IMG/VR virus record: IMGVR_UViG_3300027749_000047
Span: 71,954 to 135,953 of that record
Origin: a virus
Length of the DNA: 64,000 nucleotides
Reading direction: 5' to 3' (one strand)
Program-made: the position numbers and the translations under genes
Notes under the pieces: model-generated
Databases searched by the model: none
What the model saw: the letters and a program-made list of their open reading frames with translations, nothing else
What the model was told of the DNA's origin: nothing
Shown here: one piece after another, positions 38,356 to 58,789 of the stretch
Position numbering within the stretch: the stretch's first letter is position 1
Layout: every line of letters begins with the position of its first letter

Positions 38356-39861
38356 ATGACTGAATCACCTATTTTTAGCCTTGTCAGGCCACCAACCAAT
38401 AAAGAAGAGTTGTGGTGGACTGTTAAAGCGCTGTGGGGTGTTGAACTTCCAAGAGTGCAAGTGTGTCCGGATCACACAGCGCCTTTTGATGCTTTTGCAG
38501 AGGCGTATTTTGGTAATGATTACAACTGGGTGCTTTGGTATGGTTCGCGTGGTACAGGCAAGTCTTACATGCTTGCTTTGCTTGCTTTAACTAAGGCTGC
38601 TTTGCTTGAGATTAACGTAACGCTTCTTGGTGGGTCTATGGCTCAGTCACAAAACATTCATGAGCATGTGGAGTTTTTGACGCAATTTCGTAATGCGCCA
38701 GTGCACGCTATTGAATCAATTATCAAGACACAAATTACTTTTACTGGTGGTAACTGGATTCGTCCTCTACCAGCTTCTCAAAAGACTGTTCGTGGTCCTC
38801 ACCCTCAAATGACTCTGCTTGATGAGATTGACGAAATGGAGCGTAAGATTTATGACGCTGCTATGGGTCAGGCTATGACTAAACCTAACGTGCGTGGCGT
38901 TGAGATTCCTGAAATGGTTGTTGCTTCTTCTACTTGGCAAAACCCTGTTGGCACGTTTCAGTCTGTTATGGATGAAGCTTTGGCTAAGGGTATGCCTGTT
39001 CGTACGTGGTGTTATCGTGAGCAGTTGAAACCTAATGGGTGGATGGATCCTGATTTTATTGAACGTAAACGTATGTCTGTTCCAGCAGAAATGTTTCGTG
39101 TTGAGTATGAACTTGGTGAACCTGCTGGTGGGTCTCGTGCGTTTGATTTGGAAAAGTTAAATAAGGCTTTTGTTGAATTGCAGATTGTTGATGAGCGTCA
39201 TTCTGCTAATGATGATGAGTGGATTTTTGAGCATCCAGTGCCTACTGCTACTTATTCTGCTGGGGCTGATTGGGCAAAAGAGCAAGATAAGACTGTTATT
39301 GCTGTGTTTAGGTTAGATGAGGGTAAGCGCACTCTTGTTTATTATCGCCGGTTTAATCGTATGGATTGGCCTACGATGATTGGTGTTTTTAACAAGGTAA
39401 CTACTGACTATCAGGCTATGGCAGCGCATGATGCTACTGGTATTGGCAATGTTGTTCATGACATGGTTGATGAGCGTGTGATTAAGTTTACGATGTCTTC
39501 TCAGAAGCGTACTGAGATGCTTACTAATTACATTACTGCTGTTGAGCAGGGGCGTTATCGTTTGCCTCGCAATACGCCTGCTTACAATGAGCATAAGTCC
39601 ACTACTGTTGAGGAAGTTTTTGGTGGTGGTGGTTGGAACTCTCATTTGTCTGATGATGTGTGTGCTTTTGCTTTGGCTCATCATGCTGCTGAACGTATGG
39701 CTCCTCCTGCTTCTGGTGAGGGTGTTAAGAAAACTGAATTTGCTCCGGCTAAGTTTAAAGAGATTACTCCTGTCTATGAGGATGATGGGCGTTACGTTAC
39801 GCAGGTTGGTTCAGTGACTGTTAAGGATGACAGTGGTGTTGGAGTTTTTAACCTTTTCTGA
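38356..39861 (+). CDS. terL: Terminase large subunit
   Basis: Walker A GSRGTGKS; Walker B LLDEIDE; nuclease motifs GADWAKEQD, HDATGIG, SDDVCA. Confidence 0.92.
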   Translation: MTESPIFSLVRPPTNKEELWWTVKALWGVELPRVQVCPDHTAPFDAFAEAYFGNDYNWVLWYGSRGTGKSYMLALLALTKAALLEINVTLLGGSMAQSQNIHEHVEFLTQFRNAPVHAIESIIKTQITFTGGNWIRPLPASQKTVRGPHPQMTLLDEIDEMERKIYDAAMGQAMTKPNVRGVEIPEMVVASSTWQNPVGTFQSVMDEALAKGMPVRTWCYREQLKPNGWMDPDFIERKRMSVPAEMFRVEYELGEPAGGSRAFDLEKLNKAFVELQIVDERHSANDDEWIFEHPVPTATYSAGADWAKEQDKTVIAVFRLDEGKRTLVYYRRFNRMDWPTMIGVFNKVTTDYQAMAAHDATGIGNVVHDMVDERVIKFTMSSQKRTEMLTNYITAVEQGRYRLPRNTPAYNEHKSTTVEEVFGGGGWNSHLSDDVCAFALAHHAAERMAPPASGEGVKKTEFAPAKFKEITPVYEDDGRYVTQVGSVTVKDDSGVGVFNLF

Positions 39862-42946: not shown

Positions 42947-43599
42947 TGACTATTTCGCAGTCTCGTTTTGGTAGCCAAGCGGAGGTTGGTCGTTCGCCTA
43001 ATCGTAAGAATGCCAAGGATCAGCATCATTGGGGTGCTGCTGTTGGTTTAGGTGTTGCTGGTACTGGTTATGGTGCCACTCGCGCTGCGAGTGTATTGAG
43101 TAATAGTGCTGGCGCTTCTAAAGCTAAGGCTAATCAGTCTCGTGCTGGTATTCGTATTAGTCAGGGCGACGCTAATCTTGCTAGGAATCTTCAAGCAGTT
43201 GAGCAGGCTAAGTTGGCTAAGTTACGTGGTCGCAATAAAGGCCAAGCGATGTGGATTGTTGATGGTCAGGGTCGTAGGGTTAATGTTCCGGCTACTGCAG
43301 ATAGTGCTTTTATGCATGGTGTTATTAATGATGTGGTTCGGGAAAGCAATAAGCATGCGCAGACTGCTAGCAGGCATGATTTGGCAACTAAAAAGTCTCG
43401 TGATGAGGCGCGTGCTCATGCTCAAAATTATGCTCGTATGAATCGTTACAGTAAGTTGGCTTCTCGTGGCGGAAAGATTGCTATTGGTACTGGCTTGCTG
43501 GGCGCGGCTGGTGCTTTGGCTCAAACTGAACATGCTCGTGGTACAGTTGGCTACAAGCGACCTACACGCGCACAATTAAGGGGACGTAATGTCAGATGA
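42946..43599 (+). CDS. Basic G/A-rich head-module protein
   Basis: N-terminus QSRFG is shared with an internal segment of 40919-42946. Confidence 0.55.
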   Translation: MTISQSRFGSQAEVGRSPNRKNAKDQHHWGAAVGLGVAGTGYGATRAASVLSNSAGASKAKANQSRAGIRISQGDANLARNLQAVEQAKLAKLRGRNKGQAMWIVDGQGRRVNVPATADSAFMHGVINDVVRESNKHAQTASRHDLATKKSRDEARAHAQNYARMNRYSKLASRGGKIAIGTGLLGAAGALAQTEHARGTVGYKRPTRAQLRGRNVR

Positions 43600-45160
43600 T
43601 GTACGTTTGGCGGCTAGACAAACTGATGGCTTAAATGCCACGCCTGCTGATATTCAGGCTTTAGAAGAATTAAAGAATGCTTCGCCGTTTCTGGAACTGG
43701 GTACTACTGGTCTTAAGCGTGCTGGTGGCTATATTGATGAACAGTTTCTTCCGCAGTTGCGTGGGCGTAAGGCTGTTCAAGTCTTTAAGGAAATGGCTGA
43801 GAATGACCCTTTGGTTGGGTCTTTGTGGTTCACTATAGATCGTTTGATTCGTAATGTTGAATGGCGTGTTGAGCCTGCCAGTAAGTCTAAAGAAGATACT
43901 GATAATGCAAAGCTTGTTGAAACTTGTATGGATGACATGTCTCATACTTGGGATGATTTTATTTCTGAGGTTTTGTCTTGTGTGATTTATGGCTGGTCTT
44001 GGCATGAGATTGTGTACAAGCGTCGTGTTGGTCCGTGGGAGCGCGATTCTTCTAAGCGCTCTAAGTACACTGATGGTTTGATTGGCTGGCGTAAGATGCC
44101 AATTCGCGCACAGGAAACTTTGTTGCGTTGGGCGTTTGATGATACTGGTGATGTTTCTGCGATGATTCAGTTGGCTCCTCCTCGTTATGAAACTAAGGTT
44201 TTGCCTATTGAGCGTTCGTTACTGTTTCGTTATCGTCATCAAAAAGGTAATCCTGAGGGTATGTCTATGCTTCGTCAGGCTTATCGTCCTTGGTACATGA
44301 AGAAGCGCCTTGAAGAATATGAGGCTGTTGGTATTGAGCGTGACCTTGCTGGTTTGCCTGTTGTTAAGGTGCCGGCAGAGTTTTTGCGGGCTAAGCCTGG
44401 CTCTCAGCAGGCTCAAACTGTTGAGGCGTTTAAGCGTATGGTTAAGTCTGTGCGTCGTGATGAGCAAGAGGGCATTGTGTTTCCTATGGCTTATGATCAG
44501 GACACTAAGCAACCTTTGTATTCGTTTGAACTTATGGGCGGTGGCGGTGCTCGTGCTTTCAATACTGATGCAATTATTCAGCGTTATGAGCAGCGAATTT
44601 TGATGTCTGTTTTGGCTGATTTTATTATGGTTGGTCATGAGGGTGGTGGCTCTTACAGTTTGCATACTGATAAGACTGGTATTTTTCGTACTTCGCTTAA
44701 CTCTATTGCTGGTTCTATTGCAGATACTTTGAACCGTTATGCTATTCCTCGGTTGTTTTCTGTTAATGGTATGAAGCCTGCTGAGTTGCCTAAGATTGTG
44801 CCTGGTGATGTTGATAGTCCAGATATTGCGCAGTTGGCTCAGTTTATGTCCGCTATGTCTAGCACTGGTGTCACATGGTTCCCAGACCCAACTATGGAGA
44901 ACTTTATTCGAGATGCTGCTCGTTTGCCTAAACTTAATGAAGAGGATGAAGATCGTCGTCGTCAAATGCAGATGCGTACGGAGGCTACGCAATACGCACA
45001 AGCTAACATTGCGTATGTTCAGGCTAAGCAACAGTTGGCTCAAACTTTGATGGGTCAGCAACAACAGCAAGCGCAGCCTGGTCAGCCTGGTCAACAGGAT
45101 AGTCAACAGAATGCTAGTCAACAAGAAAGTCAACAACAAAATCCTCAGCAGGGGCAGTAA
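43589..45160 (+). CDS. Portal protein (DUF935/Mu gp29-like)
   Basis: ELGTTGL, YGWSWHEIVYK, GNPEGMSMLR, GIERDLAG.P and IQRYEQRILMSVLADF motifs; poly-Q tail. Confidence 0.9.
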   Translation: MSDDVRLAARQTDGLNATPADIQALEELKNASPFLELGTTGLKRAGGYIDEQFLPQLRGRKAVQVFKEMAENDPLVGSLWFTIDRLIRNVEWRVEPASKSKEDTDNAKLVETCMDDMSHTWDDFISEVLSCVIYGWSWHEIVYKRRVGPWERDSSKRSKYTDGLIGWRKMPIRAQETLLRWAFDDTGDVSAMIQLAPPRYETKVLPIERSLLFRYRHQKGNPEGMSMLRQAYRPWYMKKRLEEYEAVGIERDLAGLPVVKVPAEFLRAKPGSQQAQTVEAFKRMVKSVRRDEQEGIVFPMAYDQDTKQPLYSFELMGGGGARAFNTDAIIQRYEQRILMSVLADFIMVGHEGGGSYSLHTDKTGIFRTSLNSIAGSIADTLNRYAIPRLFSVNGMKPAELPKIVPGDVDSPDIAQLAQFMSAMSSTGVTWFPDPTMENFIRDAARLPKLNEEDEDRRRQMQMRTEATQYAQANIAYVQAKQQLAQTLMGQQQQQAQPGQPGQQDSQQNASQQESQQQNPQQGQ

Positions 45161-45414
45161 TGAATTTGGTTCTTGAACATAGGGCGCAAATGACTATTGC
45201 GGGTGCTTGTGCGCACATTGCGCAGGAGAATAATGCTGATGCTGCAAAACTTGTTAATTTGTTTGTGTCTGATGTTATGGAAGAGAATGGCGTTAAGTTT
45301 GATGAGGCTTTAGAGATGCTGGCTCGTGCTGGCATTGCTGTTTCTATGATGGCTGCTGAACCTAATGTTGAGGAAACTTTTAGGCGTATTACTTTGGCGC
45401 TAAGTGGGTTGTGA
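45160..45414 (+). CDS. Hypothetical protein
   Basis: TAATG coupling to the portal gene. Confidence 0.6.
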   Translation: MNLVLEHRAQMTIAGACAHIAQENNADAAKLVNLFVSDVMEENGVKFDEALEMLARAGIAVSMMAAEPNVEETFRRITLALSGL

Positions 45415-46601
45415 TGAAGAAAGAGTCAAAGAATAGATTACATGGCGTTGAGGCTGCTGCTGTTGGTGGCAGTCTTACTGGCGTGGGCGCTAACATCAAT
45501 TACCGCGCTGAGCGTACTTTGAGGGAGTCTGGCAAGAAGGGTTTGTGGGATGCTACTAAGGCCCGTGAGTTAGGTTCTCATCATGCCAAGTTTGTTGGTT
45601 CAAAGTTTGGTGCTCGTGGTTTGCAGGTCACAGGTATTCCTTTGGCTTTGGTTGGCGCTAAGCATGCTGTCACTGGTGAGGATACTCGTCGTTTGGACAT
45701 TCACCATGATGTGGTTAAGCCTGTTGCTCGTAATGCTGTTATGGCTGACCAGTTGAAGCGTGGGGAAAAGACTTTGAGTAAGAGTGATGCGCCGGAGTAT
45801 GAAGACAAGATTCTTAATTCTAAGCGTCGCGCTAAGAACTTTTCTCGTGTTGCTGGCACTTTGGGTCTTGCTGCTTTGGGTACTCGTGCACCTGAGATTG
45901 CTAATTATGCTGTTAAGAAAACTCCTAAGTTGGCGGCTAATAAGCATATTTCTACTTTGATTTCACATGAGCCTAAAGCGACTAAAGCTTCTAACGCATT
46001 GGGTATTGGCTCTATTGGTGTTGGTTCTTTGGGTGCTTTTAATAATGCTCATATGCAAAACTTAGAAGTTAAGCAGGGTAAGCAGCGTAGGGCTTCGTCT
46101 TCTATTATTAAGCGCGATGACAAGTTTTTGGCTACTCATCGTGATCGTATTAGTCCAAAGGCTGAAGAGGGCTATAAGTATTTAAAACACGGCGCTAATA
46201 GTCGCACGTTTGATGCCGCTGCTGCTGGAGCGTTAGGTACTGGCGCTATTGCTTATTCTGTCAGGGATTTGCGTCATAAGAATAAGGCTGGTGCGGCGCT
46301 AGGTACTCTTGCTGGTGCTATTACTCTTAAAGAAGCGCATGATAATGCTCGGGCTGCTAGGGCTTGGAATGCTAAGGCTAATAAGATTAAGGCTAAGGCT
46401 TATGAGCGCGAGGCTGTTGGTGAGTGGGGTAAGGGCCGTCATGTTGCTGTTGCTAAGTCTTTGTGGGATGTTGAAAAGGCATCTTTGGCTTTGGTGCCTA
46501 GCGTTCCTAAGGGTTTGATGCGTAAGCCTGCTATTAGAGCAGGTCATTTGATGAGAACGCGTAGTGGTAAGGTTGTTTCTGTTAATGGGTCGATTGGTTA
46601 A
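45411..46601 (+). CDS. G/A/K/R-rich head-module protein
   Basis: LSKS, IIKR, VAKS and VEKA segment boundaries; Gly/Ala hydrophobic stretches. Confidence 0.55.
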   Translation: MMKKESKNRLHGVEAAAVGGSLTGVGANINYRAERTLRESGKKGLWDATKARELGSHHAKFVGSKFGARGLQVTGIPLALVGAKHAVTGEDTRRLDIHHDVVKPVARNAVMADQLKRGEKTLSKSDAPEYEDKILNSKRRAKNFSRVAGTLGLAALGTRAPEIANYAVKKTPKLAANKHISTLISHEPKATKASNALGIGSIGVGSLGAFNNAHMQNLEVKQGKQRRASSSIIKRDDKFLATHRDRISPKAEEGYKYLKHGANSRTFDAAAAGALGTGAIAYSVRDLRHKNKAGAALGTLAGAITLKEAHDNARAARAWNAKANKIKAKAYEREAVGEWGKGRHVAVAKSLWDVEKASLALVPSVPKGLMRKPAIRAGHLMRTRSGKVVSVNGSIG

Positions 46602-46612
46602 GGGGTTTTGTT

Positions 46613-49600
46613 GTGTCGTTGCTTGATGCGGTTCGTAAGGCTGTAGAGGAAGACCCTATTGGCGGTTCGATTCTTATTGATGAAATCGTTTATTCGGTTT
46701 TGGCTGATGAGGCTGAGCAGGTTCGCCCTGCGGTTGAAAAGATGCTGTCTGTGTTTATGGCAGAGCGTGTTGGTGTTGCTAAGCGTGCGTTAGGTCGTGC
46801 ATATGTTGAGACTATGGCTAATGGTGAGTATCCTGACCCTGAAGTTCAAAAGAATGCTGAATGGATTGCGGGCATCGAGCGTTTTATTGCTTCAGATATT
46901 TCTAAAGCTGATGATCGTACTTTTGATGAGCGTCTTCATCCTCGTGGCAGTGGTGGCCGCTTTAGTGTCAAAGCACCTCCTGCGGCTGAGGTAAAAGCAG
47001 GCGCATACGTTGGTTATGCCGCTGCGCAGCATAAGTCTAAGCATAGTGCGTCTACTCAAACGCACGTTATGCATGATGGTAAGAAAAACGTTTATGCTGA
47101 AGGTATTCATCCGGATACGCAAGAACTTGTTGACCAGCATCAGTATCAGTGGGATGCAGCTAATCAGCAGGCTAATAGCATTATGGAAAGTTTTGGTCGT
47201 GATGCGGGAAAGATTAACCTTCGTATTACTGTTCAAAATAAGCATAATGACAAGTTGCGTGACATTGTTGTTCCTGGCTCTGAGGCTAAGGGTGGTCTAC
47301 CGTCTGATAGCGCTTGGTCTATTAATGATGATTACAAGTCTATGAGTGTTGATGCGGCTAATTTGGATAACCCTACTGACCAAATTCTTATTGATAATAA
47401 GGTTAATGCTTATAATGTGATGGGTAATGCAGGCGGTCCAGCTTTGGCTGAATTGGGCACTATTGATTCTTCTCGTTACACAAAACTTGGTCAGACTATG
47501 GATCGCGGTTACATGCGTTCTCAAGACAAGTCTAAGATGGGCACTTTCTTTGACCGGTTGCATGCAGGTGGTGGCATTCTTCGTGAAACTCCTGGTATGG
47601 AAAAGTATGGGCGTTTTGCGCAGTTTGTTGGTCAGACTGGTCCTGAGGCTGAAAAGTATTTGGGGCCTTATGCTCAGCAGGCTGCGTATCGTTACCGCGG
47701 TACTGAGAAAGAACCTGATTTAGATTTGGTTAGTCAGTTTAATAGTGTCACTATGAATGCTGTTAATGCTGTGGCTACTAACCCTAATAATACTTTGGCT
47801 ATGAATCATCTTGAAAATGAAGTTTCAGGTCAGGGTGAAAAAGACGTTGTTGCTACGTCGGCTGTTTATGAAATGAATCATTTGAAGCGCACTCGTGGTG
47901 GCGAGTATACGCCAGATGAGTTGGCACTAAATGTTCGTGCTGATGTGGCGGCTCGTCATTTGTTGAATACGTTACCGTCGGACCCTTTTGTTGCTGATTT
48001 GTCTCGCGCAGCGGGTAATGTGTTGCCGTCGCAGGGTGTCATTATTGATGCTGATGGCGATGTTGTTAGTCAGTCTGTTGGTTTTTCTGATGACCATTAT
48101 TTGCCTTTTGATTTGAAGAATCTTAAGTCTTTGCGTGGCGGCCAGTATGTGCGTACTCGTCAGCAGGGTGGTTTGACTGCGGAGGATGTTTATGCGTCTA
48201 TTCGTACGGGTGCGCGTATGGCTACTGTTGTTTCCAGCAGTGGTGTGTTTTCTTTAGAGTTTGACCCTAATTTCCGTGGCGCTCGCGCTAACTCTGATAA
48301 GGCTCGACAGATGGTTGACCGCTATGTCAGTATTCTTGATGCGGTTCAAAACTCTAATTTGTACACTCAAGATATTGATCAGCGTGAAAAAGAACGTCTT
48401 CGCGGTATGGCTAACTCTATGGGCTCTACGCCAAAAGAACGCAAAGATTTGTTTGAGCATTATGTTGACCAAGCTCGTACTGCTGGTGCGACGCTTAATG
48501 AGCAAGATTTGCAGATGCTTCATGAGGATGCCATTAAGCAGGTGGATTCTGAGGGCTTTAAGTACAAGAATGAGCGTTACAATCGTCGTGTTAATGAAGT
48601 GTTTGATGAGTTGGCTGAGCAGAAGCGTGCAGCCCGTGTTTCTCGTCTTAATCTAAATTCAAAAGGTTATGACGCTGCTTTGCAAACTTTGCAACAGCAG
48701 TTCCCTTATTTTATTCGTTCTGTTAAGTATCAGCCTTTGACTGCTGATAAGAATGGTCAGCGTGGATTCTTGCAGTCGCTTGGTCAGTCTGGTGCTGCGG
48801 GAGCGCGTCAAAAGTTGGGCGCTAAGGATCAGGGTTATGTTAATGCTGGTGCCGGTGATTTACGGCCTAATGTTGGTTACAAAGAGCCTAAGGAAGAAAA
48901 GACTGAGGCTGGTGCAGCGCCTAAGGAAGAAAAAGTTAGTGCAACACCTTCTGCTGGTGCAACACCTGAGACTAAAGCTAAGCCTGTTCCTAAGGCTAAG
49001 TTTTTGGGTGATTTGGAAGCATTTACTGCTGTCGCGGATAAAGAAGCATCTAAAGATGTTGAAGAGTTGGCGTCTATGTTCCGCAGTCATGACCCAACAA
49101 TTCAAGGTATCCCAGGCACTACAGAGTGGTCTGTAGCAAAGGGTGCTTTTGAAACTACTGGTGATAAACGTTTGGCTGCTAAGTATCTTTTGGCTGCTTC
49201 AAATAATGGAGAGCACGATGCTTTAGTTAAGGCTTACAAATCAGACCCTGCTGTTGTAGGCGCGGTTTTGTCTGATGAAAAAGCAGTGAAAGAGGCTTTG
49301 GCTGCTTTGTATGGTTCTGCTTGGAAGGGCGAATCTGAAGCCAGTTTTGGTATGTCGCTTGAGGATTTGCAAAACAATGTGCATTATGTGGCAGATAAAA
49401 TTAACGATTCTGCTTCGTTAAAGTCTCCTTACGCACCTGCGGCTCATGGTCCTGCTGGTCTATTTTATTCAGGCGATAAGCCTCAGGAGATGGCTGAGTT
49501 GGCGTCTGTTAATGACAAGGCTGGTCTTAAAGCGATGATTAATGCTAATCCTGCGGTTGCCGAGATTGCGTCAGACCTTGATGGTTTGGATAACACTCAA

Positions 49601-50086
49601 ATGAGTAAATTGGTCGCTGAGCGCGTTGCTGTGCTTAAAAAAGCTAAGGATGCTCGTATTGGTGAGTTGTTTAGTTCTGAGGCCGCTATTGATCCGGATA
49701 AGGCTGCTGACAAGGCTTTGTCTAAAGCAGGCATTACTCCTGATGAATGGAAAGATGCGATGGGGTCTAGCACTAGTTCTCATTTTGGTACATTCCAACA
49801 GTTCTTGCCTGAAACTATTGACCAGCGTGCGCAAGCTACACAAGCTGCTTGGGGTGCTATCTATACGTCTCAGTTGATGGATAAGTTAGAGGAGTTGAAA
49901 GCATCTTCTGCTGAGGCAGGTGGTGTTGAGGCCCCAAAAGCGGAGCCCCCAGCGGGGGAGTTAGCGAAAAGCCAGCAGGGGTACTCGTCCCGACAGGTGC
50001 TCATCGCGAAGAATCATTGGCTGGCCCAAGAGGTGGCAGTGAGGCGCGAGGCGGGTCTACCACTGGTGCCGATACGGCAAAAGTAG
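46613..50086 (+). CDS. Large multidomain head-module protein (HPR motif, JAB-like domain)
   Basis: DISKA..LHPRGSGGRF; JAB/MPN-like segment at 48023-48270; slippery site at 49933. Confidence 0.6.
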   Translation: MSLLDAVRKAVEEDPIGGSILIDEIVYSVLADEAEQVRPAVEKMLSVFMAERVGVAKRALGRAYVETMANGEYPDPEVQKNAEWIAGIERFIASDISKADDRTFDERLHPRGSGGRFSVKAPPAAEVKAGAYVGYAAAQHKSKHSASTQTHVMHDGKKNVYAEGIHPDTQELVDQHQYQWDAANQQANSIMESFGRDAGKINLRITVQNKHNDKLRDIVVPGSEAKGGLPSDSAWSINDDYKSMSVDAANLDNPTDQILIDNKVNAYNVMGNAGGPALAELGTIDSSRYTKLGQTMDRGYMRSQDKSKMGTFFDRLHAGGGILRETPGMEKYGRFAQFVGQTGPEAEKYLGPYAQQAAYRYRGTEKEPDLDLVSQFNSVTMNAVNAVATNPNNTLAMNHLENEVSGQGEKDVVATSAVYEMNHLKRTRGGEYTPDELALNVRADVAARHLLNTLPSDPFVADLSRAAGNVLPSQGVIIDADGDVVSQSVGFSDDHYLPFDLKNLKSLRGGQYVRTRQQGGLTAEDVYASIRTGARMATVVSSSGVFSLEFDPNFRGARANSDKARQMVDRYVSILDAVQNSNLYTQDIDQREKERLRGMANSMGSTPKERKDLFEHYVDQARTAGATLNEQDLQMLHEDAIKQVDSEGFKYKNERYNRRVNEVFDELAEQKRAARVSRLNLNSKGYDAALQTLQQQFPYFIRSVKYQPLTADKNGQRGFLQSLGQSGAAGARQKLGAKDQGYVNAGAGDLRPNVGYKEPKEEKTEAGAAPKEEKVSATPSAGATPETKAKPVPKAKFLGDLEAFTAVADKEASKDVEELASMFRSHDPTIQGIPGTTEWSVAKGAFETTGDKRLAAKYLLAASNNGEHDALVKAYKSDPAVVGAVLSDEKAVKEALAALYGSAWKGESEASFGMSLEDLQNNVHYVADKINDSASLKSPYAPAAHGPAGLFYSGDKPQEMAELASVNDKAGLKAMINANPAVAEIASDLDGLDNTQMSKLVAERVAVLKKAKDARIGELFSSEAAIDPDKAADKALSKAGITPDEWKDAMGSSTSSHFGTFQQFLPETIDQRAQATQAAWGAIYTSQLMDKLEELKASSAEAGGVEAPKAEPPAGELAKSQQGYSSRQVLIAKNHWLAQEVAVRREAGLPLVPIRQK
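49933..49958 (+). other. Putative programmed -1 ribosomal frameshift signal
   Basis: C CCA AAA heptamer, 6-nt spacer, CCCCC-AGC-GGGGG hairpin; AGGTGG 9 nt upstream. Confidence 0.65.
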
Positions 50087-50886
50087 AGCGTATTAGTTCT
50101 GACCTTCATTCAATGATTGGTATGAATGAAGTGGCTAATGAAGTGGATAGTCTTGTTGCTACTGGTTTGATGAATCAGAAGCGCGAAGAAGCTGGCTTGC
50201 CTGTGTCTAATAACGCTAAGCATTTGGTGTTTGTTGGTGAGCCTGGTACTGGTAAAACGACTGTGGCTAAAAAGTTGGCAAAGTTGTATAACGCGGCTGG
50301 TTTGTTGCCAAAGGATACTGTTGTTGAGACTGACCGTAGTAAATTGGTTGGTAAGTATGGCAATAACATTTCTGATCGTGTTCGTAAAGAGTTTGAGTCT
50401 GCTCGTGGCGGTGTTTTGTTTGTTGATGAGGCTTACACTCTTGCGGATGATGCTTTTGGTAAAGAAGCTGCTACTCAGTTGATGAAACTTATGGAGGAAC
50501 ATAAGGATGATACTGTGGTTATTGTTGCTGGTTATCCGGGTGAGATGGGTAAGTTTATGGCGCTTAATCCTGGTATGAAGTCTCGTTTTTCTAAGACTGT
50601 TAATTTTCCTAACTATTCTCATAAGGAGCAGGTACAGATTCTTGAGCAACGTATGGCTAGGCATAAGGATGTGGTTGATAGTCCACAGACTGCTAAGGCT
50701 TTGAATGAGGCTGTTCGTGTGGCATCTGCTGAAGGTGGTAATGGCCGTGCTATGGAGCGTTTGCATGCCAGACTTGAAGAGGCAAGAAATGTGCGTTTGA
50801 GTCGTAAGCCTGATTTGTCTACTGAAGATTTGTCTGTGTTTACTGTTGATGATGTAAACTCGGCTATCGGGGCTTCTAGCTCTTAG
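50017..50886 (+). CDS. CbbX/CfxQ/SpoVK-family AAA+ ATPase (probably a frameshift extension of 46613)
   Basis: HLVFVGEPGTGKTTVA, LFVDEAYTL, VVIVAGY..EM..F...NPG.KSRF and FPNYS motifs; no clear RBS. Confidence 0.9.
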   Translation: MAGPRGGSEARGGSTTGADTAKVERISSDLHSMIGMNEVANEVDSLVATGLMNQKREEAGLPVSNNAKHLVFVGEPGTGKTTVAKKLAKLYNAAGLLPKDTVVETDRSKLVGKYGNNISDRVRKEFESARGGVLFVDEAYTLADDAFGKEAATQLMKLMEEHKDDTVVIVAGYPGEMGKFMALNPGMKSRFSKTVNFPNYSHKEQVQILEQRMARHKDVVDSPQTAKALNEAVRVASAEGGNGRAMERLHARLEEARNVRLSRKPDLSTEDLSVFTVDDVNSAIGASSS

Positions 50887-50904: not shown

Positions 50905-53361
50905 GTGAATCGTTGGTGGGCCAATCCGGAGTTATCTGCAGAGATTTTAAAGTCTGTTGATGATTCGGATGTTGTCAATGGTGTTGGTGTGGCTGTTTTG
51001 GGTTATCACGGGCTTGCTATGGGTGTTTTAAAGCCTTTAGTTACTCAGACACTAGTTGATACTCATACTGTGCGTAAGGCGCTTTTACAGGTTGATTTAC
51101 AGCCTATTGCTAAGGCTTTGTCTGAGGCAACTAAACCTGTTATGGGTGATGCTTCTGAACGTTATGGCAAATTGTTGGCTGATGCTATTCATGAGAAAGC
51201 CGTGGCTTCTACTGAGCGTTTATTGCATACGTGGACAAATAACGGAATGCCTTGGCCTAACGCTATTGAACGTGCTGCTGAGGTGCATGGTGTTCCTGTT
51301 GAGCGTCTGGGGCGTTATGCGTCTGTTATGAAAGCGGCTACTGTTAATCCGCATATTCGTGCTGATTATGCTGATCGCGAGTTGATGACTTATGCATCTG
51401 TTATGGGTAGTCGTGAGTCTTTGATTTCTTCTGAGTTAATTTCTAAGCAAAAGTCTGAGTTTGAAGAGTTGCACCCTAGGGCTTCTGATGGTCGTTTTAC
51501 TGATAAGAGTGAAGTTCTTGATTTGCGTGCCAAGTTGAATAAGATGAAAAAGTTTAAGGCTGCTCGTGAGGTTGGTTCGCAAGTCAAGCGTGGTACTTTT
51601 GATTTTGCTAGGTCTAAGACCGCTGGTGAGTCTCGAACTAAGATTGCGCCTCGTACTAAAGTGGAGCCTAAAAAAATGGAGGTGCAAACTACTGGCGATA
51701 CTTTTAAAACTAGTTTTAGGCATTCTTTTCGCAAGCCTGATTTTAAACTAAACGACCCTAGTGGCGATTGCCCTACGGTTCCAACGTTTTTTGTTAATGG
51801 TGACGTGTATATTCCTGTTAATGCTTCTTTACTTAATCAAATTAAAAAGCAGAGTAATCTTTTTACTGCGTGGGATGTTAAGAATCATGATGGTAATGGT
51901 GAACTTGAGGCTTTTGGCAAAGATGGCTTTAGTGACTATGTTGACATACGTGGTTTAAAAAATATTGTTAATGAAGGCACTGTTCTTCTAAAATGTAGTT
52001 ACACGCCTGTTCACAAGAATCGTGCTGATGTTTTGACTAATTCTAGCGGTAATCCGCATACTGATGATTTTAAGTGGAGTACTGTTGCACCTAAAGCTAC
52101 ATTTAGACTTGTTACTGGTGGCCCAGAGCCTCGCAGTTTAATGTCTTTGATTAATGCCGGCAAGCATAAGTTGCACAGTTATTCTGACGATTTTGAAGAC
52201 GATTTTGTACCTAATACTGATGATTTTAAAGTTTATGAAATCGCTTTGGTTAATGATGATCCTGATTTGTGGGAAGAAGATATTAGTAAAAATTTGTCAG
52301 ATGAGGAGCGTGAGGTTTTTAACGTAGAACATCCTCGTGCTGTTAATGGTCAGTTTACTGATAAGAATGTTACGTCTCTTAAGGCTAAGTTGGATAAGCG
52401 CAATAAGATGGCTCGCCAGCGTGAGATTGGGCAAAAAGCTAAGCAGGGTAATTTTGATTTTAAAGAGTCGCGTCAGAATCAAGCTGATGTTCGTCAGAAG
52501 GTTTCTGCTTTGCGCCAAGAGCCAGTTTTTGCTGAAACTAAATTTAAGCAAAGTTTTAAAACTAATTTTAAAATGTTTTATAGGGATGAAACACATGACC
52601 CTATTAAGTTTGGTGACAGTTGGGCTGTGATTGTTCCTTACGGTATGTCTCCTATGCCTGATTTGTGGCCATGGTTAAATGAAAAAGCATTTAGCGAGCG
52701 TTCGTATAAAAAAGAAACTCACCCTAAAGGTCCTACAGAAATAGTTTCAGGAAATCTTGAGGATGATAGAACTGCTTTAAAAGTGTTTAAAAATACTCAT
52801 GGCAGCAGTTTGTTAATACCTAGAGAACAACGCACGTCTCCCGGTAGGGCTTTGTCACCAGTTGTTGGAAATATTATTAATCATGCTGATCGCAGAGAGC
52901 CTGAAAAAATTATTAAAGTTACAGGTACTGGTGGTAATAGCGAAGATACTGGTGAGTGGTCTTTTGAAACACCTGAGCAGGCGCTTGAAGCGGCTAATAA
53001 TAGTAAGCAGCGTTTTAGTCTAAGTAATTCATTTTTAATGTGGCAACCGGAAGCTTTGATTAATGAAAACGGCGAATATGATGCTATTTTGGCTGGGTAC
53101 AACCCAGAAGAGAAATATCAACTTATTGTAGGTAGTTATAGTGACCTTTGGGAAGCGCATTATATTGCTAACGAAAATCCTGAAGAGTTTGCTGAAAGAG
53201 TAAAAATTGTGCCTTCTGATAAGGACGTAAGTAATTTGCAGGAGTTTTTATCACTTAGTGATAGCGATGAGATTATTGATGAAGTTAATTCGGCTATTCG
53301 CGATAAGGGTACTAACCCGCCAATAGAATTGTATGAAATTAAAGTTATGCCACCTTGGTAG
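50905..53361 (+). CDS. Large head-module protein with internal duplication and two HPR motifs
   Basis: Repeats near 51436-51740 and 52282-52580. Confidence 0.6.
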   Translation: MNRWWANPELSAEILKSVDDSDVVNGVGVAVLGYHGLAMGVLKPLVTQTLVDTHTVRKALLQVDLQPIAKALSEATKPVMGDASERYGKLLADAIHEKAVASTERLLHTWTNNGMPWPNAIERAAEVHGVPVERLGRYASVMKAATVNPHIRADYADRELMTYASVMGSRESLISSELISKQKSEFEELHPRASDGRFTDKSEVLDLRAKLNKMKKFKAAREVGSQVKRGTFDFARSKTAGESRTKIAPRTKVEPKKMEVQTTGDTFKTSFRHSFRKPDFKLNDPSGDCPTVPTFFVNGDVYIPVNASLLNQIKKQSNLFTAWDVKNHDGNGELEAFGKDGFSDYVDIRGLKNIVNEGTVLLKCSYTPVHKNRADVLTNSSGNPHTDDFKWSTVAPKATFRLVTGGPEPRSLMSLINAGKHKLHSYSDDFEDDFVPNTDDFKVYEIALVNDDPDLWEEDISKNLSDEEREVFNVEHPRAVNGQFTDKNVTSLKAKLDKRNKMARQREIGQKAKQGNFDFKESRQNQADVRQKVSALRQEPVFAETKFKQSFKTNFKMFYRDETHDPIKFGDSWAVIVPYGMSPMPDLWPWLNEKAFSERSYKKETHPKGPTEIVSGNLEDDRTALKVFKNTHGSSLLIPREQRTSPGRALSPVVGNIINHADRREPEKIIKVTGTGGNSEDTGEWSFETPEQALEAANNSKQRFSLSNSFLMWQPEALINENGEYDAILAGYNPEEKYQLIVGSYSDLWEAHYIANENPEEFAERVKIVPSDKDVSNLQEFLSLSDSDEIIDEVNSAIRDKGTNPPIELYEIKVMPPW

Positions 53362-53408: not shown

Positions 53409-54122
53409 ATGGATTCGTTAGAGATTGTTAAGTCGCTTCATAAGGTTGATCCTGGCTTTGTTGATTTGTGCAAAACTTTGTTTGGCGATGCTGTTTATCC
53501 TGAGGCCATTTGGGAGTATTTGTACACTCCTGAGGGTATTTCTAAGATGGGTCCAGAGCCTTCAGAGCTAAATACTTCTTCTAGTAATAAGCGTGGCCGT
53601 CTTGTTCCACAGGAGCGTACTCCGCAGGTGCCTCGCGTTAAGGTTCCACCTAAGCATTCTCATAAGGGCGAGCAGGTTGATAATACTGACGCTATGAGTA
53701 AGTCTGATGATGATTTTGACATTACGTGGGCTGGTGAGTTTGCTAAGTCTGATGAGGATAAGCGTCAAGTTTTTGGTTGGGCTTCTATTGTTGAGGTTGA
53801 TGGTCGCCCGGTTGTTGATCGTCAGGGCGATTGGATTACTCCTGAAGAGATTGAGAAGGCTGCATACCAGTATGTTCTTAATTCTCGTAAAGCAGGTCAT
53901 CAGCATAAGCGTGATGGCGACCAGCCGTTTCATGCCGGTGACATGATTGAGTCTTTTGTTATGACACCTGAAAAGGTTGAAAAGATGGGTTTGCCTGACG
54001 ATACTCCTATTGGTTGGTGGGTTGGCTACAAGATTCATGATGAGGATGCTTGGCAGAAAGTTAAGAAGGGCGAAGTTACTGGCTTTTCTATTCATGGTCG
54101 CGGTAAGCGTAAAGAAGTCTAA
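53409..54122 (+). CDS. Prohead protease (XkdF-like, peptidase S78_2)
   Basis: RQVFGWA..D.QGD.I..EEIEKAAY..H...ESF..GWWVG.KI.D..W.KVKKGE.TGFSI.G. Confidence 0.85.
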   Translation: MDSLEIVKSLHKVDPGFVDLCKTLFGDAVYPEAIWEYLYTPEGISKMGPEPSELNTSSSNKRGRLVPQERTPQVPRVKVPPKHSHKGEQVDNTDAMSKSDDDFDITWAGEFAKSDEDKRQVFGWASIVEVDGRPVVDRQGDWITPEEIEKAAYQYVLNSRKAGHQHKRDGDQPFHAGDMIESFVMTPEKVEKMGLPDDTPIGWWVGYKIHDEDAWQKVKKGEVTGFSIHGRGKRKEV

Positions 54123-57781: not shown

Positions 57782-58789
57782 ATGCCAAGTCCATCCCAGT
57801 CCGATCTGCATGTTAATGTGCCGTTGACCAATGTGTCGATTGCCTACATGCAGTCTGCAGATGCATACATTGCTGACAAGGTTTTCCCTAAGGTTCCTGT
57901 CAAGAAGCAATCTGACCTTTATTGGAAGTACAGCAAGAGCGATTGGCGTCGTACTGACGTTGCTCGTCGTGCTCCTTCTACAGAGTCACCTGGCGTTGGT
58001 TGGAATACAACCACCGACCAGTACTTTGCTCATGTCTACGCTGTTCACAAGGACATTGATGACCAGCTACGCGCTAATGCTGATAGTAACTTTGTGCTTG
58101 ACCGCGATAGCACCGAGTTCATCACTAATCAGCTTCTTTTGAAGCGTGACGTTGACTGGGCTGCTAAGTACTTCACTACTGGCGTTTGGGACAATGACCT
58201 TGTTGTTGGTGCTTCTGCTAACACTAATGGTTTCACTGCTCCGGCTGCTAAGTGGTCTGATGCTGGTTCTGACCCTATTGGTGACGTTGCTCGTGCGGTT
58301 ATTGCTTTCCGTAAGAACACTGGTTTTGCGCCTAACATCATGGTTATTGGTGCGGATGTTATGACTGCTCTCAAGCAACATCCAGACATCATTGACCGTA
58401 TCAAGTACACTCAGCGCGGTATCGTGACTGAAGACTTGATTGCTACTATGTTTGGTGTTAACGAGTTGTACACGTCGTACGCTTCACAGGCTACTGGTCC
58501 ACAGATTCCAGATGCTAAGACTCAGGATGCTGCTGCTTCATACAGTTTCATTAATGATTCTAAGTCTGCTCTGTTGTGCTACGCTCCTTCAGCACCTAGC
58601 TTGATGACTCCATCTGCTGGTTACACGTTCACTTGGAACGGCTACCTCGGTGGTAACTCTGAAGGTATTAAGATTAAGCGTTTCCGTATGGAGCATATTG
58701 CTTCTGATCGTATCGAGGCAGAAATGACTTACGATATGAAGACGGTTGCTACTGACCTTGGTGCTTTCTTCACGGGCGTGGTTGCATAA
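57782..58789 (+). CDS. Major capsid protein
   Basis: LHVNVPLTNVSIAY..IADKVFPKVPV.KQSD..Y; SDPIGD; ALKQHPDIIDRIKYTQ motifs; RBS TAGGAG. Confidence 0.9.
   Translation: MPSPSQSDLHVNVPLTNVSIAYMQSADAYIADKVFPKVPVKKQSDLYWKYSKSDWRRTDVARRAPSTESPGVGWNTTTDQYFAHVYAVHKDIDDQLRANADSNFVLDRDSTEFITNQLLLKRDVDWAAKYFTTGVWDNDLVVGASANTNGFTAPAAKWSDAGSDPIGDVARAVIAFRKNTGFAPNIMVIGADVMTALKQHPDIIDRIKYTQRGIVTEDLIATMFGVNELYTSYASQATGPQIPDAKTQDAAASYSFINDSKSALLCYAPSAPSLMTPSAGYTFTWNGYLGGNSEGIKIKRFRMEHIASDRIEAEMTYDMKTVATDLGAFFTGVVA

Follow-up and report, generated by a model that had tools for sequence, protein, structure and literature searches.

A dnaX-type −1 frameshift signal, conserved among uncultured freshwater phages, is predicted to fuse a giant head-module protein to an AAA+ ATPase

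In the head module of an uncultured freshwater phage, a gene for a giant protein is directly followed by the coding sequence of an AAA+ ATPase that lies in the −1 frame relative to it, which raises the question of how the ATPase is translated. The DNA concerned (hereafter, the window) is a stretch of 64,000 nucleotides (nt) that forms the second half (positions 71954–135953) of the 135,953-bp IMG/VR record IMGVR_UViG_3300027749_000047. A preliminary description of the window proposed that ribosomes pass from the giant open reading frame (ORF) into the ATPase frame by a programmed −1 frameshift with signals like those of dnaX. Comparison with related genomes supports this proposal through the phase of the slip site, the open −1 frame, the conserved codons, and the lack of a conserved start codon for the ATPase. 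A dnaX-type programmed −1 frameshift very probably fuses the giant head-module protein to the ATPase, and it may be the principal or even the sole means by which the ATPase is made.

Frame 0 of the giant ORF (46613–50086) reads GCC CCA AAA GCG at 49931–49942, which places a slippery heptamer, C CCA AAA (49933–49939), in phase 50 codons before the stop codon of the giant gene. The −1 frame is closed by a TGA at 49927–49929 and is then open from 49930 to its stop codon at 50884–50886. A Shine–Dalgarno (SD)-like element, AGGTGGTG, precedes the heptamer, and its predicted duplex with the 3′ tail of 16S rRNA (−15.1 kcal/mol) is more stable than that of every control window of the giant gene. The heptamer is followed by a 6-nt spacer and a CCCCC-AGC-GGGGG hairpin in a locally GC-rich patch (62–63% GC at 49900–50050 vs. 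about 45% in the surroundings). The predicted products have 1157 amino acids (frame 0) and 1109 + 315 = 1424 amino acids (fusion), with the junction ...EAPK|SGAPSGG.... The in-phase heptamer, the ATPase frame open to 50886, the AGGTGG core 9 nt upstream (49918–49923), the spaced hairpin in its GC-rich patch, and products of 1157 and about 1424 amino acids had all been reported in the preliminary description, and all are confirmed on the sequence (Table 1).

The second genome copy contained in the record (L002), whose proteins are 84–87% identical to those of the window, has retained every element of the cassette (TGA, SD-like element, heptamer, and the two arms of the hairpin) and differs in the hairpin loop alone. 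In one metagenome run, the 31-mer at 49914–49944, which comprises the SD-like element and the heptamer, forms its own unitig with a depth of 95 vs. about 20 in the flanks; it seems that a number of co-occurring relatives have an identical cassette sequence.

DNA was examined for three homologues and 79 IMG/VR loci. By tblastn, 25 loci bear the ATPase: in addition to the window and its duplicate locus (L001), there are 23 relatives, which represent 17 non-redundant lineages with 30–87% identity and 43–72% GC. [quoted passage not shown] An in-phase CCCAAAA is located 33–71 codons before the frame-0 stop codon, again in 25 of 25, and is followed by 315–364 open −1 codons; 15 of 23 loci have a −1 frame that becomes open no more than 12 nt before the heptamer. 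The heptamer is kept, together with its phase and the open −1 frame, in all 23 ATPase-bearing relatives, without exception as NNC CCA AAA Gnn. Several residues are found before Pro-Lys (A, P, G, V, F, S, L), always with an NNC codon; several are likewise found after it (A, V, D, G, E). In lineages with 66–72% GC, AAA accounts for 0–3 of the 34–59 Lys codons elsewhere in the giant gene. Given the conserved Pro-Lys, the summed log10 probability of this codon choice is about −60 (over 23 rows, which are partly related). This codon choice is far beyond chance and reflects selection on the nucleotides, as expected of a slippery site. At the protein level, Pro1108 and Lys1109 are invariant within an otherwise variable C-terminal region (alignment of 26 clusters, 30–84% identity). 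In Escherichia coli, C_CC.A_AA.A is shift-prone and C_CC.A_AA.G is the most efficient heptamer measured (PMC4066793).

Two further observations concern the slip site itself. In L012 (7495), L018 (7351), and L025 (7168), a second in-phase X XXY YYZ sequence (CCCGGGG, GGGCCCA, and GGGGGGT) is found within 12 nt of the heptamer. In proteins P0051, P0062, and P0089, Pro-Phe-Gly replaces Pro-Lys in the C-terminal region, and these homologues could use another slippery heptamer, of the C CCT TTG type.

The two putative stimulators recur along with the heptamer. Every lineage has a G-rich element 5′ of the heptamer (GGTGGTGA, GGAGGTGG, and similar sequences), which is predicted to pair with the 16S tail at −11 to −18 kcal/mol. 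In 20 of 23 lineages, this energy ranks no higher than the 5th percentile among all windows of the gene concerned; the 16S 3′ tail used for these energies may not match that of the host. Downstream, a stem-loop starts 5–9 nt 3′ of the heptamer in nearly all lineages, and in 20 of 23 its energy ranks no higher than the 13th percentile among windows of its own gene. As these stem-loops differ in sequence, it is the structure that recurs.

A separate start for the ATPase is not similarly conserved. In at least 10 lineages, the −1 linker that leads from the heptamer to the ATPase fold contains no ATG, GTG, or TTG at any point. The only Met codons that recur belong to the SMIGM motif, the counterpart of the LIGL helix of SpoVK/CbbX; L005, L014, and L016 lack them, and SD scoring gives values close to zero for them (+0.7 to −5). 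The statement in the preliminary description that the ATPase's own start codons lack an evident ribosome-binding site therefore extends to the homologues, which show no conserved start codon or ribosome-binding site.

The stretch in which the two frames overlap codes in both, which also accounts for the GC-rich patch. In the −1 frame, the linker contains the motif GxLVPTG (present as GVLVPTG in the window) or its variants GxLAPTG and GxLFETG, which are found one or two times in the −1 product of 19 of 24 loci scanned and are absent from all other coding-strand ORFs of at least 60 codons in the same 24 loci. Lineage differences within the motif (TCG/TTG, CAG/CGG) are synonymous in the −1 frame and non-synonymous in frame 0. 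In L016, L019, and L020, the motif is absent from the linker and is placed after the ATPase domain instead. The frame-0 tail carries a conserved motif of its own, RVxVLxKxHPLS...GLPLV, which is conserved more widely than the motif of the −1 linker. Between the window and L002, most changes that fall in the first half of the overlap are silent in the −1 frame, and the second half has changes that are silent in frame 0; changes synonymous in the −1 frame only make up 8 of 21 in the overlap vs. 14 of 113 upstream. Substitution density in the overlap is below that of both flanks, or of the sole alignable flank, in three of four informative close pairs. The difference is marked for L003/L010 (1.4% in the overlap vs. 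7.8% and 4.6% in the flanks) and marginal for the window and L002 (14.6% vs. 18.8% and 15.5%).

GxLVPTG is tentatively regarded as a processing or docking site. A search for it as a possible protease site in the other head proteins of the window and 23 loci found none. Sites of the form GxLVPTG(S/R)R are located at 8350 in L016, 8305 in L019, 8194 in L020, and 7522 and 8446 in L027, and the copies that follow the ATPase precede a basic tail.

The same slip site is found in front of modules other than the ATPase. A sister clade of five loci has an in-phase CCCAAAA together with its following G (L030, L031, L035, and L043) or GGGAAAA, read G GGA AAA (L046), which leads into −1 extensions of 60–298 codons that are not ATPases. 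These consist of a linker rich in G, P, A, and S and, in the four long ones, a domain of about 130 residues; they match no Pfam family and show no similarity to anything in the fetched loci. By contrast, 31 more distant relatives have no in-phase CCCAAAA in the last 250 codons, no ATPase, and no −1 extension fed by such a site. In a FastTree phylogeny from which the last 120 residues were left out (midpoint-rooted for drawing only), the slip-site loci (17 with the ATPase and 5 with other extensions) are split from the 31 site-less loci with 100% branch support, and the ATPase group and the other-extension group each occupy one side of a well-supported branch. As the slip-site loci all lie on one side of a single branch, the cassette arose, or was lost, once. 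It has persisted over a long divergence, in which it serves different modules.

The following mechanism would account for these features. Pairing of the 16S tail with AGGTGGTG and the GC hairpin would together hold the ribosome at the slip site. During the pause, tRNA-Pro and tRNA-Lys would occupy CCA AAA, and in a fraction of ribosomes they would move back by one base and pair anew with CCC AAA. Unshifted ribosomes would add the conserved 48-residue tail and stop at 50084–50086, yielding the protein of 1157 amino acids. Shifted ribosomes would read ...EAPK|SGAPSGG..., the flexible GxLVPTG-containing linker, and the AAA+ module, and would stop at 50884–50886 to yield the protein of 1424 amino acids. 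Frameshifting would set a fixed ratio of plain to ATPase-bearing giant protein, and the giant body would serve as the address by which the ATPase, or the alternative modules of the sister clade, reach the head under assembly. The genome comparison bears out the signal and its phase, an open −1 frame, translation of the −1 linker, the dual coding constraint, and the lack of a conserved separate start. Judging from gene position, the giant protein may plausibly be a virion cargo protein, with the fusion as its sub-stoichiometric form.

Certain points weigh against this reading. The z-scores of the hairpins against shuffled sequences are modest (mean about −1.3), and the high GC of the dual-coding patch contributes to the hairpin stability. 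A conserved Gly-Gly is encoded by the upstream GGTGGTG, whose conservation could thus be partly at the protein level. In-frame ATG codons (50113 and 50122) are located at the start of the ATPase fold in the window and in several relatives, with the frame-0 stop codon 27 nt upstream, and could give some free ATPase by re-initiation. The missing ribosome-binding site is weak evidence, because many genes of the phage have weak SD sites. The 1424-amino-acid trans-frame product is a prediction from sequence comparison. The function ascribed to the giant protein is drawn from gene order; fold and family searches gave nothing reliable.

The ATG codons give rise to the alternative that survives best, in which both routes operate: the fusion is made by frameshifting, and initiation or re-initiation at ATG 50113 or 50122, or at TTG 50017, supplies free ATPase that could join the tethered copies. 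The recurrence of the SMIGM ATG codons in many lineages, the closeness of the frame-0 stop codon to the first of them, and the placement of the ATPase start at these codons by gene callers in L003 and L004 all fit this arrangement, as does the need of AAA+ rings for six subunits, which fusions alone may hardly supply. However, the Met positions are ordinary hydrophobic positions of the LIGL helix, occupied by Leu or Tyr or absent in L005, L014, and L016; the SD scores at these codons are near zero, as noted above; and a start there would clip the first residues of the domain matched by the hidden Markov model. We therefore regard a second route as rather unlikely, although it would leave the frameshift itself in place.

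A coincidental resemblance to a frameshift site, with two ordinary overlapping genes, an ATPase made from its own start only, and a Pro-Lys/G-rich stretch kept for the sake of the protein, is very unlikely. Public gene calls do list the giant gene and the ATPase separately, and Pro-Lys and Gly-Gly are conserved at the protein level; however, a need of the protein leaves unexplained the invariant use of the rare CCA AAA, the preceding NNC, and the following G. Nor would it explain why the ATPase is in the −1 frame in 25 of 25 loci, why that frame opens right at the slip site, why the linker has a conserved motif and no start codon, or why the sister clade feeds unrelated −1 domains from the same site. 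Slippage of RNA polymerase on the C5A4 run, to give mRNAs one base longer or shorter, would have an identical fusion as its outcome, and homopolymer runs can cause it; runs of 4–5 bases are nevertheless well under the lengths established for efficient slippage (PMC5009743), the C run is just 3 bases long in several lineages (GGC CCA, GTC CCA), and polymerase slippage assigns no role to a conserved SD-like element and hairpin at ribosomal spacing, which makes it extremely improbable. A sequencing or assembly indel that conceals a single 1424-codon ORF, an error considered in the preliminary description and favored by nothing beyond the general risk at homopolymers, has a negligible probability given that the second genome copy and more than 20 assemblies made independently show the same arrangement, the contigs from four other freshwater metagenome runs that span the site without gaps or indels, and the conservation of the frame-0 tail itself.

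Natural in-frame fusions, another point raised in the preliminary description, were found neither among 171 homologues of the giant protein (636–2025 amino acids) nor in a search with the ATPase for longer proteins, which yielded only cellular multi-AAA proteins with at most 45% identity. The giant protein has more than 120 homologous clusters of 1000–1225 amino acids, none of which is near 1424.

Table 1. Features of the slip-site cassette, the AAA+ module, and the surrounding head module (window coordinates unless a locus is named)
Feature	Position	Strand	Remarks
SD-like stimulator AGGTGGTG	49918–49925	+	7 nt 5′ of heptamer; AGGTGG core 49918–49923, 9 nt 5′
TGA closing the −1 frame	49927–49929	+	3 nt before slip site; part of GGTG(N)TGA element
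Slippery heptamer C CCA AAA and invariant next G	49933–49940	+	Encodes Pro1108-Lys1109
Stimulator hairpin CCCCC-AGC-GGGGG	49946–49958	+	5-bp G:C stem, AGC loop; 6-nt spacer after heptamer
Frame-0 tail, 48 residues and TAG	49940–50086	+	Predicted product of non-shifting ribosomes
−1 extension, 315 residues and stop	49939–50886	+	About 55-residue low-complexity linker, then AAA+ module
GVLVPTG (copy of GxLVPTG)	49978–49998	+	In −1 linker
CbbX/SpoVK/EccA-type AAA+ module	50095–50883	+	Pfam AAA, 3e-16
Walker A	50236–50259	+	AAA+ module
Pore-loop-like LVGKYG	50344–50361	+	AAA+ module
Walker B	50413–50433	+	AAA+ module
NPGMKSRF (Arg finger)	50566–50589	+	AAA+ module
GNGR (sensor 2)	50737–50754	+	AAA+ module
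Large terminase	38356–39861		Head module
Mu-type portal	43589–45160		Head module
84- and 396-amino-acid ORFs	45160–46601		Between portal and giant ORF
Giant ORF, 1157 amino acids	46613–50086	+	Between portal gene and protease-like/major head genes
AAA+ ATPase	Stop at 50886	+	Directly after giant ORF, −1 frame
818-amino-acid ORF	50905–53361		3′ of ATPase
Protease-like gene	53409–54122		Head module
Major head protein	57782–58789		Head module
Sister-clade slip sites	L030 6109; L031 7081; L035 7204; L043 7288; L046 6067		In-phase CCCAAAA (GGGAAAA in L046)

The ATPase is probably an active protein-remodeling motor of the CbbX/SpoVK/EccA subfamily, which belongs to the classic-clade AAA+ ATPases, judging from its motifs. 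Against NCBIfam, it matches SpoVK (1.4e-62, profile positions 3–260 of 261), the AAA part of EccA (2.2e-59), and CbbX (1.5e-43). Assignment as an orthologue of SpoVK, EccA, or CbbX was rejected, as the scores of 211, 202, and 149 bits lie far below the equivalog cut-offs of 423, 467, and 459, respectively. With residue 1 taken as the first codon after the slip, Gly100, Gly103, Gly105, and Lys106 of Walker A, Asp163 and Glu164 of Walker B, Arg216 of the arginine finger, and Asn268 of sensor 2 are invariant in 15 lineages. CbbX (the red-type Rubisco activase), SpoVK, and EccA (the type VII secretion ATPase) belong to the same AAA+ subfamily over the whole module and share the pore-loop-like LVGxYxG, NPGxxSRF, and GNxR motifs with the phage ATPase. 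Members of this subfamily remodel or thread partner proteins. EccA has an N-terminal TPR region that the phage ATPase lacks, and the phage ATPase, unlike all three, would be made as the C-terminal part of a phage head-module protein. In searches of the GenBank phage collection, only distant stand-alone ATPases were found for it.

For the giant carrier protein, megablast and tblastn searches of the same GenBank phage collection gave no match and revealed no cultured relative, no family was matched in Pfam, PHROG, or NCBIfam (including MuF or any other polyvalent-protein domain), and a PDB profile search and the ESM Atlas gave no match. An AlphaFold2 model built from 26 sequences (predicted local distance difference test score 69.9) is mostly helical with a central mixed domain. 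With this model, Foldseek against the PDB returned generic helical matches only; BFVD returned the protein's own family and weak rows for a "minor capsid protein" (E values 1e-3 to 8e-2); and the sole match from VIA-align was one N-terminal helical hairpin (Z at most 8). The C-terminus is modeled as a long helix (1066–1101), a disordered segment (1103–1134) that holds the slip site, and a short helix (1136–1147) in the frame-0 tail. As the slip site falls in a disordered segment after a long helix, the switch point would be at a domain boundary. A motif HPRxxxG(R/Q)F is found once in the giant protein (residues 109–117, disordered in the model) and twice in the 818-amino-acid protein encoded 3′ of the ATPase (190–198 and 476–484); no other head-module protein of the window contains it.

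In the 135,953-bp record, two collinear genomes of about 68 kb (1–68175 and 68176–135953), which are 70–90% identical, follow one another in head-to-tail order, and the record is probably an assembly chimera of two co-occurring strains. As the record holds two joined genomes, its estimate of "100% complete" is misleading. A search of bacterial genomes matched two contigs from metagenome-assembled genomes and found no host, and no RNA dataset is among the public runs listed as carrying the phage sequence.

The closest mechanistic parallel is dnaX of E. coli, in which tau and gamma are produced by means of the heptamer A AAA AAG, an upstream SD-like element, and a downstream stem-loop (PMC5009743). 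The phage locus has the same three-part signal, and the two sites are further alike in having Lys in the A site, a hairpin 5–9 nt downstream, and two products in a fixed ratio, which for the phage is a prediction. In dnaX, however, the shifted ribosome stops almost at once and makes a shorter protein, whereas in the phage it would read 315 more codons and add an enzyme. The heptamer C CCA AAA and the dual-coding overlap of 147 nt also set the phage site apart from dnaX.

Among phage systems, the lambda G/GT tail chaperone, T7 10A/10B, and the major head protein of Lactobacillus phage A2 (cited in PMC10885494) each have a minor, C-terminally extended form with a part in assembly. These resemble the present locus in that a −1 slip is conserved close to the 3′ end of a structural-module gene; their extensions, however, are structural or chaperone segments, whereas the extension predicted here consists of an entire AAA+ ATPase or, in the sister clade, of other domains, and the carrier is a protein of about 1150 residues encoded beside the portal gene, neither a tail chaperone nor a capsid protein. 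A G/GT-type tail assembly chaperone was considered and rejected, as the site is located between the portal and the protease-like and major head genes, in an ORF of 1157 codons, whereas such chaperones are encoded by small ORFs between the tail tube and tape measure genes. MuF-type or "polyvalent" phage proteins (PMC5512222) offer a parallel to the architecture proposed here, as they have a head-module carrier beside the portal with a clade-variable, C-terminal enzymatic module; in those proteins the joint is made by gene fusion, and here it would be made by recoding. Pairs of MuF-like protein and VIP2 ADP-ribosyltransferase that are predicted by PRFect as frameshifts exist elsewhere as fusion genes (PMC10885494), and neither frameshifting nor AAA+/CbbX modules come up in the polyvalent-protein paper (PMC5512222). 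No description of a frameshift between a head-module protein and an AAA+ ATPase was found in searches of the literature on the heptamer, in that on frameshifting, SpoVK, and phages, or in the PRFect and polyvalent-protein papers. While the mechanism is classical, novelty lies in the gene context, in the dual-coding design, and in the exchangeable module.

A broader function for the cassette can be proposed tentatively, as a possibility that falls short of being likely: it may be a general "adaptor socket," in which a set fraction of a capsid-addressed carrier is loaded by frameshifting with an exchangeable module (a protein-remodeling AAA+ motor in one clade, unrelated helical domains in its sister), so that the module enters the procapsid or is positioned at the portal. 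GxLVPTG would then be a site at which the head protease releases or trims the module, and the ATPase would act inside the head or be delivered to the host.

For the annotation of these phages, the predicted frameshift implies a systematic error, in that the ATPase is called separately, often with a truncated start, and the 1424-amino-acid product is absent from databases. The locus would add a recoding family of more than 100 protein clusters to the short list of conserved −1 frameshifts in bacteria and phages. With three classical signals and a natural control clade that lacks them, it makes a clean test case for frameshift predictors. An AAA+ motor carried as virion cargo and made by recoding would, if true, be new. 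More generally, the arrangement points to undescribed biology in these phages, in which a CbbX/SpoVK/EccA-type motor would be tied in a fixed ratio to a giant head-module protein and, in the sister clade, other modules would take its place.

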